Notes under the pieces: model-generated
The model's input: the letters and a program-made list of their open reading frames with translations, nothing else
The model's database searches: none
What the model was told of the DNA's origin: nothing
Assembly (NCBI GenBank): GCA_963744145.1
Contig: CAVUSO010000001.1
Span: 2,062,831 to 2,126,830 of the forward strand
DNA from: an uncultured cyanobacterium
Lineage (GTDB): Bacteria > Cyanobacteriota > Cyanobacteriia > Cyanobacteriales > CAWUOF01
Direction: 5' to 3'
DNA: 64,000 nt
In this document: piece by piece, positions 1,257 through 10,295 of the stretch
How positions within the stretch are numbered: position 1 is the first letter of the stretch
Layout: the number at the start of each line of letters is the position of its first letter
Translations under genes and position numbers: made by a program

Positions 1257-4200
1257 ATGAAACGACAAGCGTTAGTTATTGGGATCAACCGCTATCCATT
1301 TTTAAAGCAGCATCTCGACGGACCCGATCGAGATGCTAATGATATTGCCAACTTGCTGGATCGTCCCCAGGAACATCCCGATGATTTTACTTGGTGTGTG
1401 GAACGCTTGCTTTCTGCCAAAATAGAAACAGAAGATAGCACAGTTAAAACAGAAGAACTGCGCGAAGCTATCCAGAATTTATTTTTACCAACTACCAAAA
1501 CGCCCCCAGAAGTAGTGTTGTTGTTTTTTGCTGGTCACGGACTGCGGAATAAAGCAGGAGAAGTTTACCTAGCTGCTAGTGATGTCTGTCCCACCAGAAA
1601 AGATAAATGGGGTTTTCCGATTGAGGAATTGCGGGAATTAATGCAAAAAAGTAAAATTCCCCAGCAGATAGTATTTCTCGATTGCTGTCATAGCGGTGAC
1701 TTAGTGAATGGGTTGACAAATTTAACAGAGCCAGAACTGCAACAATGGAACATCGGTGGGAGTCGATTAATTGTCACTGCTTGTAGAGACGATCGCACGG
1801 CTAAAGGTATTGGTAAACGCGGTGTACTTACTGAGGCACTTTTACAAGGACTCGACCCCCAAAACCGAGAAACTGGCTACTGGGTCAGCACTTACTTCCT
1901 CTACGAATTTTTAATGCGGCACATCAATTATAATCCCCTGCTCAAGGAGCAAATTCCACTATGCTATCGGTATGGAGAACCGATTAATTTTTGGATGGGG
2001 AAAGGAGAAAGCGATCGCCTCCCGACTTCAACAATAGGATGGTGGAAATCTATTTGTGAGCAACGCTTAGAACAGCAGCACGCGATCAGCAGCAAATTTT
2101 TAACAGGAATTGCCCCCAAAATTGAAGATGTTTATGTACCGCTTGGTTTGGTGGAACGCCAACAGAAAAGTCGCCAAAAAGACGGCGGTGAAATAGATGC
2201 AACGCGGGGTTCTGCTTTGTATGAAGAAACCGAAATTACCCGCCGATTCCAGCACCATGAATTTTTAGAAAATGTATTGCGACGCGGTGATAGTCCGAAA
2301 AGTAAAGGCAAACGATTAGTTATATTAGGAGAACCAGGAGCCGGAAAAACTACCTTACTTCAACAAGCATCTCGCTGGGTAGCAGCAGAAATTGAGGATG
2401 CAATTGTTTTGTGGGTTTCCCTAGCAGATTTGGGAGGAAGAAGTTTAGAGGATTATTTATTAGAAGTGTGGCTACTTGAAATAGTACGAATGGCTCTGGA
2501 AGTTAGCGTTTCTGAAACTGATAAAAAGGATTTTATTGTGCAGGTTGATCAGGGACGAGTGTGGCTGTTCCTTGACGGTGCAGATGAAATGGCAGCTAGC
2601 AAACCATTATTAAAAATTGATAAACAAATTCGCAATCCAGGTTGGTTAAATAAAGCACGAATTTTACTCACCTGTCGGCTCAATTTGTGGGATAGTGGCA
2701 GTAACCCTCTCGCTGAATTTGATGTTTACCGGACATTAGAGTTTGACTATCCGGTACAGGTAGAGCAGTTTATTAATAGTTGGTTTACTGATTTGGGTAA
2801 AACGGATGAGAAAGCAATTGCTAGAGGGCAGCAACTCTGTACTGCATTAAAAGAATCAGGAAAAGAGCGAATTCAAGATTTAGTTAAAAATCCTTTGCGG
2901 TTGACACTTTTATGCTTTACTTGGCATAAGTGGCAAGGTAAATTACCGGATACAAAAGCCGGACTTTATGAAAATTTTATCGAGCGATTTTATGAATGGA
3001 TAGAAAATAAGTTTCCGGTAACTGTTGAGAAGCAAGAACAGTTAAATAAGGCGCTGGGTGAGTTGGCGCGGGAGGCAATTGATAAAGAATTAACTCGGTT
3101 TCGCTTGCGGCGCAAGTTTGTTAGCAAGTTTTTGGGAAGTCCAAAGGATAAGAAGTCCCTCTTTTATCTGGCGTTACAGGTGGGTTGGTTGAATCAGGTA
3201 GGAGTAGATGCAGATAACCCAGATGAGCCAGTTTATGCGTTTTATCATGCCTCATTTCAGGAGTATTTTGCAGCATTAGCAGTTGAAGATTGGCAGTATT
3301 TTTTACATCACATACCGCAAAATCCGCAGTTAGGAACCTATCGAATTTTTGAGAAGCAGTGGAAACAGGTAATTTTGCTGTGGCTGGGACGTGAAAATAT
3401 ACCAAAAGACCAAAAAGAAGAGTTTATTAATGGGTTGGTAGAGTTTCATGATGGATGCAGAGGTTTTTATAAGTATCAAGCCTATTTTCTAGCGGCTGCG
3501 GGAATTGCTGAGTTCAAAACTTGTAACCGATCGCAGGAGATAGTAGCAGAGATTGTTAAGTGGGGTTTTGGTTATTTCGATAATGAAAAACAGTCATGGA
3601 TGACTTTTTATGAACCTATACCGGAAACCGCTAGGAAAGCATTAAAAGAAACCGATTCTCAAAAGGCGATCATTCTTATAACGCAGCTAATTAATACGGA
3701 TTGTTCTGAAAGTATCCGCTGGCAAGCGGCAGAAAGTTTAGGGGAAATCGACCCAGGGAATCCCCAGGCGATCGCGGTTTTCATCGACTTAATCGCTCAC
3801 TCCCATGATGAATTTACCCGTTGGAAAGCAGCAGAAGAGTTAGGGAAAATTGACCCAGGGAATCCTCAGGCGATCGCGGTTTTCATCGACTCAATCGCTC
3901 ACTCCCGTGTATATCCCCCCAGCGCAGCGGCAAAAAGGTTAGGGAAAATTGACCCAGGGAATCCCCAGGCAATCGCGGCTTTAATCGACTTAATCGCTCA
4001 CTCCCACTCCCATGATGAATATACCCGCACATCCGCAGCAAATAGTTTAGGGTACATTGCCCCAGGGAATCCCCAGGCGATCGCGGCTTTAATCGACTTA
4101 ATCACTCACTCCCATGATGAATATACCCGCAGATCCGCAGCAGATAGTTTAGGGAAAATTGACCCAGGGAATCCCCAGGCAATCACGGCTTTAATTGACT

Positions 4201-5267
4201 TAATCACTCACTCCCAAGATGAATCTATCCGCATAGAAGCAGCAGATAGTTTAGGGAAAATTGACCCAGGGAATCCCCAGACGATCGCGGCTTTAATTGA
4301 CTTAATCACTCACTCCCATGATGAAGATACCCGCAATCAAGCGGCATATAATTTAGGGAAAATTTGGTACATTGCCCCAGGGCATTCCCAGGCGATCGCG
4401 GCTTTAATCGACTTAATCGCTCACTCCCATGATGAAGATATCAGCAGGCAAGCGGCAGAAAGTTTAGGGTACATTGACCCAGGGAATCCCCAGGCGATCA
4501 CGACTTTGACTGACTTAATCGCTCGCTCCCAAGATGAATCTATCCGCATAGAAGCAGCAGATAGTTTAGGGTACATTGACCCATGGAATCCCCAGGTGAT
4601 CGCGGCTTTAATCGACTTAATCACTCACTCTCAGGATGAAAATATCCGCAGGCGAGCGGCATATAATTTAGGGAAAATAGGAAAAATTGCCCCAGGGCAT
4701 TCCCAGACGATCGCTATTTTAATTGACTTAATCGCTTACTCCCAGCATCACCACACCCGCTATCGAGCGGCAGAAAGTTTAGAGAAAATCCTGCTAGACG
4801 ATTTTATATCAGAAGGTGTTACTCTTTTGGGAGTAAGGCAAAATCAAGAAGGCTTCAAAGTTCTATGGCAATGTGCCCAAAAGATGTCCTATCCAGCTTT
4901 CTATGAAGCTTATACAGTTTCCACTCTTGAGTATTGTCAGAAGTGGCTGGAGATTAAACGAACCATCGGTGATAAGCGAGGTGAGGCAGATTATCTGATC
5001 GCAATAGGTACTTTATATCAACAAAGTCGGAAATTTCGGGAAGGACAGGCATTTCTTCAACAAGCTATATATATTTTACAGGAAATTAATGCACCTATTG
5101 ATGCTTATCCCTTTGCCCAGTGGTTAAAATCAATTATTAAATTTGCTAATGGGGGCAAGTTGCAGTTAGCTCTATGCTTTATTGCTGGTTTAATAGCATT
5201 TCCGATAGCATTTCCTTTGGCTTTGATGTGGTTTTTAGCAGTGTGGTTGTGGCGTAAATGGCATTAG
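1257..5267 (+). CDS. STAND (signalling NTPase) protein: N-terminal caspase-like peptidase C14 domain - NACHT NTPase - about 9 PBS-lyase-type HEAT repeats - C-terminal hydrophobic segment
   Basis: A caspase-type His/Cys dyad is present (FFAGHGL … FLDCCHSGD). Walker A is VILGEPGAGKTTLLQ, Walker B is WLFLDGADEM, and LLTCR matches the NACHT sensor motif. Ten copies of a ~40-aa unit (…IRxxAAxSLGKIDPGNPQAIAALIDLIxHSxDE…) are encoded by ~120-nt nucleotide repeats at 3700-4790. The final 50 aa are hydrophobic. Confidence 0.8.
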   Translation: MKRQALVIGINRYPFLKQHLDGPDRDANDIANLLDRPQEHPDDFTWCVERLLSAKIETEDSTVKTEELREAIQNLFLPTTKTPPEVVLLFFAGHGLRNKAGEVYLAASDVCPTRKDKWGFPIEELRELMQKSKIPQQIVFLDCCHSGDLVNGLTNLTEPELQQWNIGGSRLIVTACRDDRTAKGIGKRGVLTEALLQGLDPQNRETGYWVSTYFLYEFLMRHINYNPLLKEQIPLCYRYGEPINFWMGKGESDRLPTSTIGWWKSICEQRLEQQHAISSKFLTGIAPKIEDVYVPLGLVERQQKSRQKDGGEIDATRGSALYEETEITRRFQHHEFLENVLRRGDSPKSKGKRLVILGEPGAGKTTLLQQASRWVAAEIEDAIVLWVSLADLGGRSLEDYLLEVWLLEIVRMALEVSVSETDKKDFIVQVDQGRVWLFLDGADEMAASKPLLKIDKQIRNPGWLNKARILLTCRLNLWDSGSNPLAEFDVYRTLEFDYPVQVEQFINSWFTDLGKTDEKAIARGQQLCTALKESGKERIQDLVKNPLRLTLLCFTWHKWQGKLPDTKAGLYENFIERFYEWIENKFPVTVEKQEQLNKALGELAREAIDKELTRFRLRRKFVSKFLGSPKDKKSLFYLALQVGWLNQVGVDADNPDEPVYAFYHASFQEYFAALAVEDWQYFLHHIPQNPQLGTYRIFEKQWKQVILLWLGRENIPKDQKEEFINGLVEFHDGCRGFYKYQAYFLAAAGIAEFKTCNRSQEIVAEIVKWGFGYFDNEKQSWMTFYEPIPETARKALKETDSQKAIILITQLINTDCSESIRWQAAESLGEIDPGNPQAIAVFIDLIAHSHDEFTRWKAAEELGKIDPGNPQAIAVFIDSIAHSRVYPPSAAAKRLGKIDPGNPQAIAALIDLIAHSHSHDEYTRTSAANSLGYIAPGNPQAIAALIDLITHSHDEYTRRSAADSLGKIDPGNPQAITALIDLITHSQDESIRIEAADSLGKIDPGNPQTIAALIDLITHSHDEDTRNQAAYNLGKIWYIAPGHSQAIAALIDLIAHSHDEDISRQAAESLGYIDPGNPQAITTLTDLIARSQDESIRIEAADSLGYIDPWNPQVIAALIDLITHSQDENIRRRAAYNLGKIGKIAPGHSQTIAILIDLIAYSQHHHTRYRAAESLEKILLDDFISEGVTLLGVRQNQEGFKVLWQCAQKMSYPAFYEAYTVSTLEYCQKWLEIKRTIGDKRGEADYLIAIGTLYQQSRKFREGQAFLQQAIYILQEINAPIDAYPFAQWLKSIIKFANGGKLQLALCFIAGLIAFPIAFPLALMWFLAVWLWRKWH

Positions 5268-7541: not shown

Positions 7542-7952
7542 ATGCAATTAACTAATCGCGGTGTTAGCTACGAATATCGTCACCCTTCGATTGAAGTCAC
7601 GGAAGGGGAACTTCTCAACAAATACCAGAGTAGGAATGACACCTGTCATTATCCCAGACATATTCCCGTACCACATCCACCTTTAAATGTCAGCTATCGT
7701 CGCTTGGCTAATCGCTCGGCTCGAATGGGACAAACGGCTCAAGAGGAAAATGAAGCTCCAAAGTTTTTGTATATGATTGAGCATCCTTTGACTCGCGATC
7801 GCCAAGAAATTTTAACAGAAATTGCCAGGGTTCACCTGAATAATATCTGTCAAAACTTAGAACACCGTCTTCGAGTAGCTCAAGCGAAACAGGATCACGA
7901 ATTAATTAAAGTTTTGGAAGCGGAATGTCAACAACTAACTTGTTCCTTGTAA
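7542..7952 (+). CDS. DUF4278-family cyanobacterial protein
   Basis: N-terminus MQLTNRGVSYEYRHPSIEVTEGE matches the DUF4278 signature (MKLTYRGVSYEYNPP…). It is followed by a strong terminator. Confidence 0.55.
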   Translation: MQLTNRGVSYEYRHPSIEVTEGELLNKYQSRNDTCHYPRHIPVPHPPLNVSYRRLANRSARMGQTAQEENEAPKFLYMIEHPLTRDRQEILTEIARVHLNNICQNLEHRLRVAQAKQDHELIKVLEAECQQLTCSL

Positions 7953-7958
7953 AAACAT

Positions 7959-7988
7959 GAGGAGGTTTTCGATACCTCCTCTTTTTTT
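7959..7988. terminator. Bidirectional rho-independent terminator between convergent genes
   Basis: gaggaggttttcgatacctcctc hairpin (8-bp GC-rich stem) followed by TTTTTTT on the + strand and preceded by an A-run. It serves the 136-aa gene (+) and rtcB (-). Confidence 0.75.
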
Positions 7989-9849
7989 AGCCTTTTACAC
8001 AAACAACCTGCTTTAAAGTTGCTTCTATTTGCACTAAATCTGATTGCTGTTTCATCACTTCATCAATTGGCTTATAAGCCCCAGGTATTTCATCCAGAAC
8101 TCCCTGATCTTTACGACATTCTACACCCTTAGTTTGCTGAATCAAATCATCTAAAGTATAAAGATTTTTAGCCTTATTACGAGATAACAAACGCCCAGCA
8201 CCGTGGGAACAAGAGCAATAACTTTCAGCATTACCCTTACCTTTCACAATAAAAGACTTAGCTCCCATTGAACCAGGAATAATTCCATAATCTTCTAATT
8301 TCGCTCGAACTGCACCTTTGCGAGTGACATAAACCTCTTCACCAAAATGCACCTCTTTTTCTGCATAATTGTGGTGACAATTAACCTCTAATAAAGGCTT
8401 AATAGACTTTCCTCCAGCAAGATGTTTCTCAATAATCCGACGAAAACGAGCCATCATCACATCGCGATTAAAACGAGCATAATCTTGTGCCCATTGTAAA
8501 TCCCGCCAATAGGCTGCAAATTCTGGAGTTCCAGCCACAAAATAAGCTAAATCTTTATCTGGTAAAGGATTTTCTGCCAGTTTTGCTAATTCCTTAGCAG
8601 TATCAATATGACACTGAGCTAACATATTCCCAATATGGCGAGAACCAGAGTGCAACATCAGCCAAACATAGTTTTCGGTATCGAGACAAACCTCAATAAA
8701 ATGATTACCACCACCAAGAGATCCTAATTGTTTGATCGCTTTACCTTCTAAACGTTGCACACCGGGATGTAATTCTTTAAAATCACTCCATTTCTGCCAA
8801 TTAGTTACGCTTTTTTCAACATCTTTGTTTTCATTAAATCCTACTGGAATAGATGTTTCAATATCTAAGCGAATTTGTTTGAGTTTTCCCTCTAAGCGAT
8901 CGCCTACAAATGGAGTTTTAACAGCCATCATCCCACAGTTATGAACAAATATACCAGCAGTAAGAGCAAAATTACCGTATTCTGGTACTGTCAAACAGTA
9001 AACATCTTCACTATTTGATAAAGGGATAACATCTAACACTTTGTGATTATAGCCATGTTGGGATTTTCTATGGTTATGATGCCAATGAGAATTTTTTTCT
9101 ATTAGTAATCGATGATCGGAGGAATGATTCTTATTGCCCATCAATTCTAAGTTTTCTGGTCTATGAGCAAAACCATTAAAATTCTTATGATGAATAACTG
9201 TTCTTTGATTTTCAAATGAAGGTACTTTCCCCAATAATTTTGATCGGGCAATAATCCAATGTGCTTTTTGATATTTACCTGAATAATTCTGCTGGATTAA
9301 AGTATAGCCATACTTATCTGTTTTAGAATAGAATGGCATTAAAGATACACCCGCTTTGAGCTGGTTAGCTTCTTGATATGTGCCATCTCGTAGCATAAAC
9401 TGATGATCCGTCGTACATTTGATCTCTTCCCCATTATCTAGAATTACCTTTAGTAATGAAGCGTTACGACGAGTTAAGTGTGCCCTCGCTTTTGCTGCTA
9501 CTACTCTTCCACTTGGGGTACAAGAATAAACAATAAATTCTTCAGAAAGTAAAGTTAGTTCTTTGATTGGGTAAGATTTTCCGTCTGCCAGAGGAATTAA
9601 GGTATCCCCAGTAAAACAACCAATGTCCACACCCACAGCGGCAGGAATAATTGCTTCTTTGGTCGCAATTACTGATCCGACTAAAGCACCTTTACCTAAA
9701 TGCACATCTGGCATTAAAGCAATATGCTTAAATACAAATGGTAATGATGCTACATTTCTGGCCATTTTCTGCTCTTCATGGCCCAGTAAATGTCCAGCCC
9801 ATGATAAAACTGGGCTAGGTGCGGATAATTGTAACTGTTCGTAGGGCAT
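7987..9849 (-). CDS. rtcB: RNA-splicing ligase RtcB interrupted by an in-frame intein (extein about 393 aa, intein 227 aa)
   Basis: RtcB landmarks are present: MPDVHLGKGALVGSV, then AVGVDIG|C…HN|CGMM, where the conserved GVDIGCGM is split. C-terminal motifs GGGNHF, HSGSRHIG and NCHHNY follow. Confidence 0.85.
   Translation of the reverse strand: MPYEQLQLSAPSPVLSWAGHLLGHEEQKMARNVASLPFVFKHIALMPDVHLGKGALVGSVIATKEAIIPAAVGVDIGCFTGDTLIPLADGKSYPIKELTLLSEEFIVYSCTPSGRVVAAKARAHLTRRNASLLKVILDNGEEIKCTTDHQFMLRDGTYQEANQLKAGVSLMPFYSKTDKYGYTLIQQNYSGKYQKAHWIIARSKLLGKVPSFENQRTVIHHKNFNGFAHRPENLELMGNKNHSSDHRLLIEKNSHWHHNHRKSQHGYNHKVLDVIPLSNSEDVYCLTVPEYGNFALTAGIFVHNCGMMAVKTPFVGDRLEGKLKQIRLDIETSIPVGFNENKDVEKSVTNWQKWSDFKELHPGVQRLEGKAIKQLGSLGGGNHFIEVCLDTENYVWLMLHSGSRHIGNMLAQCHIDTAKELAKLAENPLPDKDLAYFVAGTPEFAAYWRDLQWAQDYARFNRDVMMARFRRIIEKHLAGGKSIKPLLEVNCHHNYAEKEVHFGEEVYVTRKGAVRAKLEDYGIIPGSMGAKSFIVKGKGNAESYCSCSHGAGRLLSRNKAKNLYTLDDLIQQTKGVECRKDQGVLDEIPGAYKPIDEVMKQQSDLVQIEATLKQVVCVKG
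8938..9618 (-). mobile_element. Intein (227 aa) with an HNH homing-endonuclease-like insert, inside rtcB
   Basis: Starts with C FTGDTLI (block A) and has CTTDHQFML (block B). It ends IFVHN followed by the extein +1 Cys (block G). Internally, HHKNFNGFAHRPENLELMGNKNH…HWHHNH fits an HNH nuclease motif. Coordinates derive from residues 78-304 of the 620-aa ORF. Confidence 0.75.
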
Positions 9850-9905
9850 GATCTTTGCTCATCTTTGTTCAGATAATTATATACTACATTAATACTACAA
9901 AATTT

Positions 9906-10295
9906 TCAAGAGGTTTCAGACCGAAGTTGATGAATATTTGTTTCCCAGTTAGCACCATCAAAAGAAATTACTTGGAACCGATCGCCCACATGGTCATCAA
10001 GACAGTGGATATTCACATCGAAACAGTCGGGATGCGATCGCGGGCGATAAAAGGAGTGAATCCCACAAATCCGGCAAAAAATATGTTTAGCAATACCTGT
10101 ATTAAAGGTATAAGTTGTTAATTCATTTTCACCTTGGAGCAGGGTAAAATTTTCCGGTGGTACAATTAAGTGTAAAAAACCTTTTTTTCGACAAATTGAA
10201 CAATTACAATCAATTGCTTGATGTTGATTGATCATAACTTGAAACCGAACTGCTCCACAGTGACAACCACCTTGATAGGTAACTAAATTTTCCAT
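9906..10295 (-). CDS. GFA-family (glutathione-dependent formaldehyde-activating / CENP-V-like) zinc-binding protein
   Basis: GGCHCGAVRF … CNCSICRKKG … CRICG cysteine pattern typical of the GFA/Mss4-like fold. Confidence 0.65.
   Translation of the reverse strand: MENLVTYQGGCHCGAVRFQVMINQHQAIDCNCSICRKKGFLHLIVPPENFTLLQGENELTTYTFNTGIAKHIFCRICGIHSFYRPRSHPDCFDVNIHCLDDHVGDRFQVISFDGANWETNIHQLRSETS

Follow-up and report, generated by a model that had tools for sequence, protein, structure and literature searches.

An rtcB gene interrupted by an intein

The window analysed here is a 64,000-nucleotide stretch of contig CAVUSO010000001.1 from an uncultured cyanobacterium (assembly GCA_963744145.1), and all positions count from its first letter. 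On its reverse strand lies rtcB, a gene predicted to encode an RtcB 3'-phosphate/5'-OH RNA ligase whose precursor is interrupted by an intein (Table 1). Pfam RtcB matches the precursor at 6.9e-119, with the match broken into two stretches. Once the inserted segment is removed in silico, the resulting product of 393 amino acids (aa) matches the same family (PF01139) in one stretch, from profile position 2 to 426 of 426 (9.1e-124, 414.3 bits), and scores higher than the precursor. The RtcB motifs GGGNHF, LHSGSR, NCHHNY and CSHGAGR are intact in the C-extein, and VDIGC is present after splicing. In the numbering of the spliced product, the Asp metal ligand is Asp75 and the +1 Cys is Cys78; this numbering and the residue roles are those of Escherichia coli RtcB (PMC9745838). 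The spliced ligase has a computed mass of 43.6 kDa (precursor and intein masses in Table 1), and the GC content is 35.1% in the intein and 39.1% in the exteins.

The insertion starts with CFTGDTLI, stops at FVHN and is followed by CGMM, thereby splitting VGVDIG/CGMM (a slash marks the insertion point here and below). It is a class-1 intein of the HINT superfamily. Pfam Intein_splicing matches it at 63.9 bits (cutoff 35.8), and the curated models of the intein N-terminal region (TIGR01445) and C-terminal region (TIGR01443) at 39.9 bits (cutoff 24.5) and 28.6 bits (cutoff 15.6), respectively. The window intein retains every splicing residue: Cys1, T69 and H72 (block B, TTDH), D205, H226 and N227, followed by the +1 Cys. 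In an alignment of 25 sequences all of these are invariant except D205, which is at least 90% conserved. In the two splicing regions, 57 columns show at least 95% conservation across 112 full-length inteins, and the window copy departs from them at just one (1/40 in the N-terminal region, 0/17 in the C-terminal region). Splicing competence is thus most likely, given these intact blocks.

An AlphaFold2 (AF2) model built from the 25-sequence alignment gave predicted local distance difference test (pLDDT) values mostly of 72–89 over the blocks at approximately residues 1–96 and 190–214, dipping below 50 at residues 33–39 and 215–227. When the confidently modelled part was compared with the PDB by Foldseek, the top 50 matches were all inteins or Hedgehog autoprocessing domains, 36 of them at E≤1e-3, led by the Ssp DnaB, Ssp DnaE and Npu DnaE inteins. 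An earlier reading of this DNA from its letters alone (the sequence-only reading) had described an RtcB frame at 7987–9849 with a split active-site motif, a 227-aa insertion running from CFTGDTLI to VHN before a +1 Cys, and intein blocks A, B and G. Each of these points was borne out by the open reading frame (ORF) list and the family matches, which go far beyond what chance would give. That reading had also raised the possibility that the +1 nucleophile or the block B His might be missing from an alignment; both are there in all 25 sequences.

The junction Cys of the window protein aligns with Cys98 of Pyrococcus horikoshii RtcB, which is experimentally known as a splice junction (PMC4150793). 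Cys98 (equivalent to Cys78 in E. coli RtcB) is oxidation-sensitive and bridges both Mn ions, and its mutation abolishes every ligation step (PMC9745838). By this alignment, the intein sits immediately before the Mn-bridging catalytic Cys, at the same site as known from archaea, and the earlier placement of the insertion in the RtcB active site agrees with this.

Table 1 Features of the rtcB locus, with positions in the window
Feature	Position	Strand	Basis
rtcB precursor ORF, 620 aa (69.5 kDa), stop codon included	7987..9849	-	ORF list; NF052663.1
N-extein, aa 1-77, ending ...AAVGVDIG, holds metal ligand Asp75	9619..9849	-	
Class-1 intein, 227 aa (25.9 kDa), precursor aa 78-304, Cys1...His-Asn then +1 Cys	8938..9618	-	
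N-terminal splicing region, intein aa 1-95; block A Cys1 (codon 9616..9618), block B T69-x-x-H72	9334..9618	-	TIGR01445 6.5e-10; pLDDT 72-89
Homing-endonuclease remnant, intein aa 96-179	9082..9333	-	phrog_7545 HNH 3e-5
HNH core, presumably beta-beta-alpha, intein aa 141-170: H143 H144...N156...H165...H169	9109..9198	-	sequence positions
Junction of 95-aa (285-nt) in-frame deletion, intein aa 180/181 (NSHWH/HNHRK), +/- one residue	9078..9079	-	alignment with 322-aa alleles
C2H2 zinc-finger remnant, intein aa 180-192, H-HNHRKSQHGYNH	9043..9081	-	both Cys and beta-hairpin deleted
C-terminal splicing region, intein aa 193-227; block F D205, block G H226 and N227	8938..9042	-	TIGR01443
C-extein, aa 305-620 and stop codon	7987..8937	-	+1 Cys codon 8935..8937
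Promoter-like match TTGAAA-17-TAGTAT, just upstream of the rtcB start	9881..9909	-	consensus match only
Terminator-like GC hairpin in the gap between convergent rtcB and DUF4278; readable on both strands	7959..7981	.	consensus match only

Related species carry rtcB without the intein

In a scan of one genome per GTDB species, 564 related loci were obtained, and the analysis was based on the best 80. Seventeen of these 80 encode an intein-free RtcB of 393 aa with an uninterrupted VD[IV]GCGM[AMCG] motif. Aligned with the spliced product of the window, these 17 cyanobacterial alleles, all from other species, give 393 columns with 0 gaps and 82–84.5% identity, and the segment is therefore precisely absent from close orthologues. 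This is the comparison with intein-free RtcB that the sequence-only reading had recommended, and it came out in favour of an intein. The DNA of the empty site is highly conserved across the intein-free alleles (GGTGTnGATATTGGT/TGyGGnATG); the target is of the type GGTGTAGATATTGGT/TGCGGTATGATGGC, as exemplified by GCTGCTGTTGGTGTAGATATTGGT/TGCGGTATGATGGCAATTAAAACA in Tolypothrix (locus L066). At one locus, L071 in [Scytonema hofmanni] UTEX 2349, the rtcB ORF is intein-free and 393 aa long, yet the tblastn match covers 2178 nt; a nearby partial copy is one possible explanation.

Full-length relatives contain an HNH_3 endonuclease with a zinc finger

A search of 5.8 billion proteins with the window protein returned at least 8000 matches, of which the best 120 listed were examined. 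These are mostly named as cyanobacterial, all have Pfam Intein_splicing and, where their inteins were extracted, these occupy the same rtcB site as that of the window. Among the matches listed, the commonest precursor length is 715 aa, corresponding to a 322-aa intein, and a minority have lengths of 555–638 aa. Past its N-terminal splicing domain, the 322-aa intein has a VIHHKNFxxxDNRPENLEFMGxxxHSAYH block, then approximately 90 aa, then YTCETCGxxVKSPIGLHNHRKxxH. Pfam HNH_3 (PF13392) matched all of 30 diverse full-length endonuclease domains, at best with 3e-6, the first member scoring 21.5 bits, under the cutoff of 24.8. zf-C2H2 (PF00096) matched 14 of the 30, and the finger of intact alleles has the classical C-x2-C-x12-H-x4-H spacing (for example, in P0002, in which the endonuclease spans intein aa 96–292).

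In an AF2 model of one full-length endonuclease domain (pLDDT 75), a beta-beta-alpha element at 45–80 is followed by a helical bundle at 82–161 and a second beta-beta-alpha element at 164–188. The top Foldseek match of this model is the homing endonuclease I-HmuI (PDB 1u3e), though a weak one (E=0.046), and a profile search of the domain against PDB sequences gave only insignificant C2H2-finger matches (E≥0.26). Full-text literature searches found no paper describing an endonuclease of HNH_3, helical region and C2H2 finger in an intein.

The same endonuclease module appears from profile matches to circulate in other inteins, including those of phage-type portal proteins. A representative search with a profile of the full-length domain matched 448 clusters at 50% identity, among them T4-like portal proteins (PF07230) with 2–4 intein splicing domains each and HNH_3 far over the cutoff (54–74 bits). 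Portal-type and other representatives are P0156, P0169 and P0184 (1600–2300 aa) and P0146 (879 aa). The profile also matches a GT2/methyltransferase protein and P0167 (1903 aa, 16 matched stretches), a repetitive protein for which the match is probably spurious. We found no paper on the sharing of this endonuclease with multi-intein T4-like phage portal proteins.

The endonuclease of the window copy is truncated

Compared with the 322-aa alleles, the window intein has lost 95 aa in frame, which takes out the helical region and both finger cysteines. The C2H2 ligand set is consequently incomplete, with only H..H left (HNHRKSQH). The end-points of this 227-aa variant are shared by no other retrieved sequence. 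The HNH region has also changed: of the 40 columns in this region that are at least 95% conserved in the 112 full-length inteins, the window copy differs in four (D151A, N152H, F159L and Y168D), whereas the full-length inteins differ on average in 0.42 and at most in 3. A Pfam scan of the 106-aa central region of the window intein found no family at E≤10, HNH_3 included, and the matches that persist are to PHROG HNH families, at 3e-5 (phrog_7545), 2.8e-3 and 0.066. No LAGLIDADG family is among the Pfam or NCBIfam matches of the intein.

The endonuclease of the window copy thus reads as a truncated remnant that is probably inactive, and loss of its homing activity is most likely. The sequence-only reading had identified an HNH domain in place of the more usual LAGLIDADG endonuclease, and for the kind of enzyme this stands: all 30 relatives have HNH_3, the PHROG match reaches 3e-5 and the HH...N...H...H residues are recognizable. 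It stands less well for the window copy itself, which is truncated and without a Pfam HNH match. The signature on which that claim was based, HHKNFNGFAHRPENLELMGNKNHSSDH...HWHHNH, has to be divided in the same way. The string HHKNFNGFAHRPENLELMGNKNHSSDH does occur, at intein aa 143–169, but HWHHNH is the scar of the deletion together with two histidines of the former zinc finger.

Two relatives have longer inteins. L051 (a Desmonostoc geniculatum metagenome-assembled genome (MAG), 375-aa intein) and P0088 (365-aa intein) have additional low-complexity stretches of 43–53 aa inserted in the endonuclease domain. One of these falls in the HNH core and the other in the zinc finger; both look like further disruption by insertion instead of deletion.

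Occupied, eroded and empty alleles are interspersed among cyanobacteria

In the 80 loci, the intein is full-length (321–323 aa) at 31, shortened (161–258 aa) at 20, reduced to a mini-intein (150–157 aa) at 6 and longer (375 aa) at 1; 17 loci are truly empty, and the remainder are partial or frameshifted. The deletions among relatives have many different end-points. On a neighbour-joining tree of the exteins, the empty, full-length and shortened states are interspersed, and sister pairs can differ in state: L047 (322 aa) pairs with L080 (empty), L037 (322 aa) with L074 (empty) and L048 (322 aa) with L058 (150 aa). As seen in these alleles, the pattern is that of the classical cycle of invasion, fixation, degeneration and loss. 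An intein that is fixed and past its homing phase is expected to keep its splicing parts while its endonuclease erodes, as in the window copy, which is most likely in this middle stage of the cycle: fixed, splicing-competent and immobile.

Some cyanobacterial rtcB genes contain a second intein, of 408–410 aa (L021, a Desmonostoc vinosum MAG; L023, a Phormidiaceae MAG; and P0083). This intein lies directly ahead of the Cys in C[SA]HG[AS]GR, where Cys-x-His supplies the nucleophilic His, and has LAGLIDADG-like motifs (LLGVILADGT and LAGYLDGDGT, seen in L021). In the window this second site, at the SYCS/CSHGAGR codons of the C-extein (within 7987..8937), is empty. By their motifs, the inteins at these two catalytic sites of a single gene family are of different types, HNH at the first and LAGLIDADG at the second.

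Relation to catalogued inteins

The intein type is already known and catalogued in hundreds of cyanobacteria, and the window allele is a distinct deletion variant of it. The precursor matches NCBIfam NF052663.1 (RtcB_rel_intein2, 'intein-containing RctB family protein') over residues 1–620 and profile positions 1–626 of 626, at 1214 bits against a cutoff of 1050. NCBI already applies this name to the homologues P0062 and P0070. The family has the same architecture, a cyanobacterial RtcB with an intein at VDIG/C, and the window differs from it by its own 227-aa deletion variant and not in kind. In the other curated intein-RtcB model, NF038162.1 (961 positions), the window protein scores 150.6 bits, with its best stretch in the extein (query 370–620); this is far under the cutoff of 1150, and the protein is therefore not in that family. 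The exact window protein is already present in NCBI, ENA and Logan.

Among individual relatives, the 322-aa alleles of Coleofasciculus (P0002), Microcoleus vaginatus HSN003 (L040) and Scytonema hofmannii PCC 7110 (P0030) share the site, the splicing blocks and an HNH core of the form VIHHKNF...NRPENLEFMG..HSAYH, whereas the window copy lacks the 95 aa with the helical region and the Cys pair of the finger and has the four core substitutions. The intein of P. horikoshii RtcB (PH1602) has the same host enzyme and insertion point and is archaeal. RtcB was listed among bacterial intein hosts by Novikova et al. 2015 (PMC4760082), with 27 inteins, in phyla including Cyanobacteria. A preprint (bioRxiv 10.1101/2025.01.02.630785) cites Dalgaard et al. 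1997 for the first in-frame HNH endonucleases in inteins and describes the type as rare and non-canonical. Those inteins likewise have the HNH domain in frame inside the HINT domain, where LAGLIDADG is usual; the lineage of the window differs in being of HNH_3 type, with a helical region and a C2H2 finger behind it in intact alleles, and in being truncated in the window. Among phage homing endonucleases, I-HmuI gave the best, if weak, structural match for a full-length relative, and HNH_3 is the Pfam family matched by all 30 relatives. I-HmuI is free-standing and intron-encoded, in contrast to the nested position here, and the window copy reaches no Pfam HNH threshold. What is added here is that the HNH endonuclease of the window copy is truncated and probably inactive.

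Genomic surroundings

Upstream of rtcB lie genes for a GFA-family protein, a HAD hydrolase and an NDH-2-like oxidoreductase, and downstream a convergent gene for a DUF4278 protein. The upstream genes adjoin rtcB in none of the 80 other loci, and a functional linkage with them was rejected on that ground. No rtcA, rtcR or prfH lies near the window rtcB, and a scan of the window gave no rRNA, tRNA or Rfam matches. Judged by the homologues, the source is clearly a cyanobacterium of filamentous type.

The DUF4278 protein (136 aa, 7542..7952, forward strand) has a homologue near rtcB in five Microcoleus loci, and its C-terminal 46 aa score 49.1 bits against the model of PirA (PII-interacting regulator of arginine synthesis), just below the cutoff of 50. 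Farther away, at 1257..5267 on the forward strand, a 1336-aa ORF has an N-terminal EACC1-type caspase domain (4.3e-24), HEAT/TPR repeats and weak NACHT-type matches to antiphage proteins (EruA and HyoA), and looks like a caspase-NACHT conflict-system protein.

Interpretation and alternatives

We favour, with a probability of roughly 0.8, the reading that the window encodes an RtcB ligase with a class-1 intein of a lineage widespread in cyanobacterial rtcB, that its endonuclease has decayed, and that the element is most likely fixed and immobile. Splicing would proceed by an N-S acyl shift at Cys1, trans-thioesterification to the +1 Cys, cyclisation of Asn227 and an S-N shift. The expected products are an active 393-aa ligase in which VDIG-CGMM is restored and a free 25.9-kDa intein. 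The ancestral intein would have had 322 aa and a homing endonuclease made up of an HNH_3 core, an approximately 90-aa helical region and a C2H2 zinc finger, which would have cut the conserved empty site and driven gene conversion. The 95-aa in-frame deletion, removing the helical region and half of the finger, and the four near-invariant substitutions in the HNH core would represent later decay. The intein would now persist only because its imprecise loss would destroy the RtcB active site.

Several observations weigh against this reading. The canonical HNH residues H143, H144, N156, H165 and H169 are all kept in the window copy, and residual nicking or cleavage by it is possible. Residues 97–189 of the window intein were modelled with pLDDT below 50, such that its HNH fold is not modelled confidently. 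The allele has no close full-length relative: the nearest full-length alleles are no more than about 70% identical to it in DNA, and the gap was misplaced when they were aligned to look for microhomology at the deletion junction. Finally, the allele proportions are only indicative, since they come from the 80 best-scoring of 564 loci, which do not form a random sample.

The sequence-only reading had called the insertion a mobile element, implying that the shortened HNH domain still works as a homing endonuclease or nickase and can invade empty rtcB alleles. Besides the retained HH...N...H...H residues, an open frame through the remnant, the phrog_7545 match and the existence of conserved empty target sites in related species are consistent with current mobility. 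We nevertheless consider it unlikely, since the window copy has lost the 95 aa found behind the HNH core in every one of the 112 full-length alleles, both C2H2 Cys included, more core residues are changed in near-invariant columns than in any full-length allele, and the Pfam HNH_3 match is gone. In I-HmuI, an HNH homing endonuclease of solved structure, the DNA-binding modules needed to recognize the target lie C-terminal to the catalytic core. The description as a mobile element is apt for the intein lineage; for the window copy, with its endonuclease truncated, four core residues mutated and no Pfam HNH match, it probably describes the past.

An alternative explanation of why the intein was retained is that it acts as a redox- or metal-responsive switch, with conditional splicing controlling RtcB, since the binuclear Mn site is exactly where Cys1 and the +1 Cys lie. 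The persistence of mini- and shortened inteins with intact splicing blocks in many lineages would fit such a role, as would a junction residue that is an oxidation-sensitive, metal-bridging Cys (PMC9745838), and conditional splicing has been proposed for other inteins in work cited in the preprint mentioned above (bioRxiv 10.1101/2025.01.02.630785). If this were true, RNA repair in cyanobacteria would be gated post-translationally by splicing, and the decayed endonuclease would be irrelevant. We regard it as quite improbable: the 17 intein-free alleles are interspersed with occupied ones, as a selfish homing cycle would predict and a conserved need for regulation would not, and the lethality of imprecise excision explains persistence equally well.

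The allele could also be dead, its intein no longer splicing and the locus making no active RtcB. The gene rtcB is dispensable in many bacteria, and the locus has no conserved operon context. Such a loss is very hard to reconcile with an intact 620-codon frame containing all catalytic motifs, an extein 82–84.5% identical to intein-free alleles without gaps, and 56 of 57 highly conserved splicing-region columns unchanged. A lineage-specific insertion domain of RtcB that is not an intein, for which nothing speaks beyond its presence in many cyanobacteria, was rejected as having a negligible chance of being right, because close orthologues lack the segment precisely and align gaplessly, all intein blocks are present, the predicted fold matches only inteins and Hedgehog domains, and the segment would sterically split the Asp75/Cys78 metal site.

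On the preferred reading of a decayed, fixed intein, the right annotation for the locus is a single rtcB with an intein, neither a fusion nor a pseudogene, with a 393-aa ligase as its product. The HNH_3/helical/C2H2 endonuclease and its sharing with phage portal proteins may merit follow-up, as a matter of the family and not a property of the window copy. The allele series could serve studies of intein degeneration or a search for compact Cys1/Cys+1 inteins (150–157 aa) for protein engineering. Across cyanobacteria, a single catalytic-site codon shows every stage of the homing cycle, from empty to full-length, variously deleted and mini, and the window allele stands in mid-decay.

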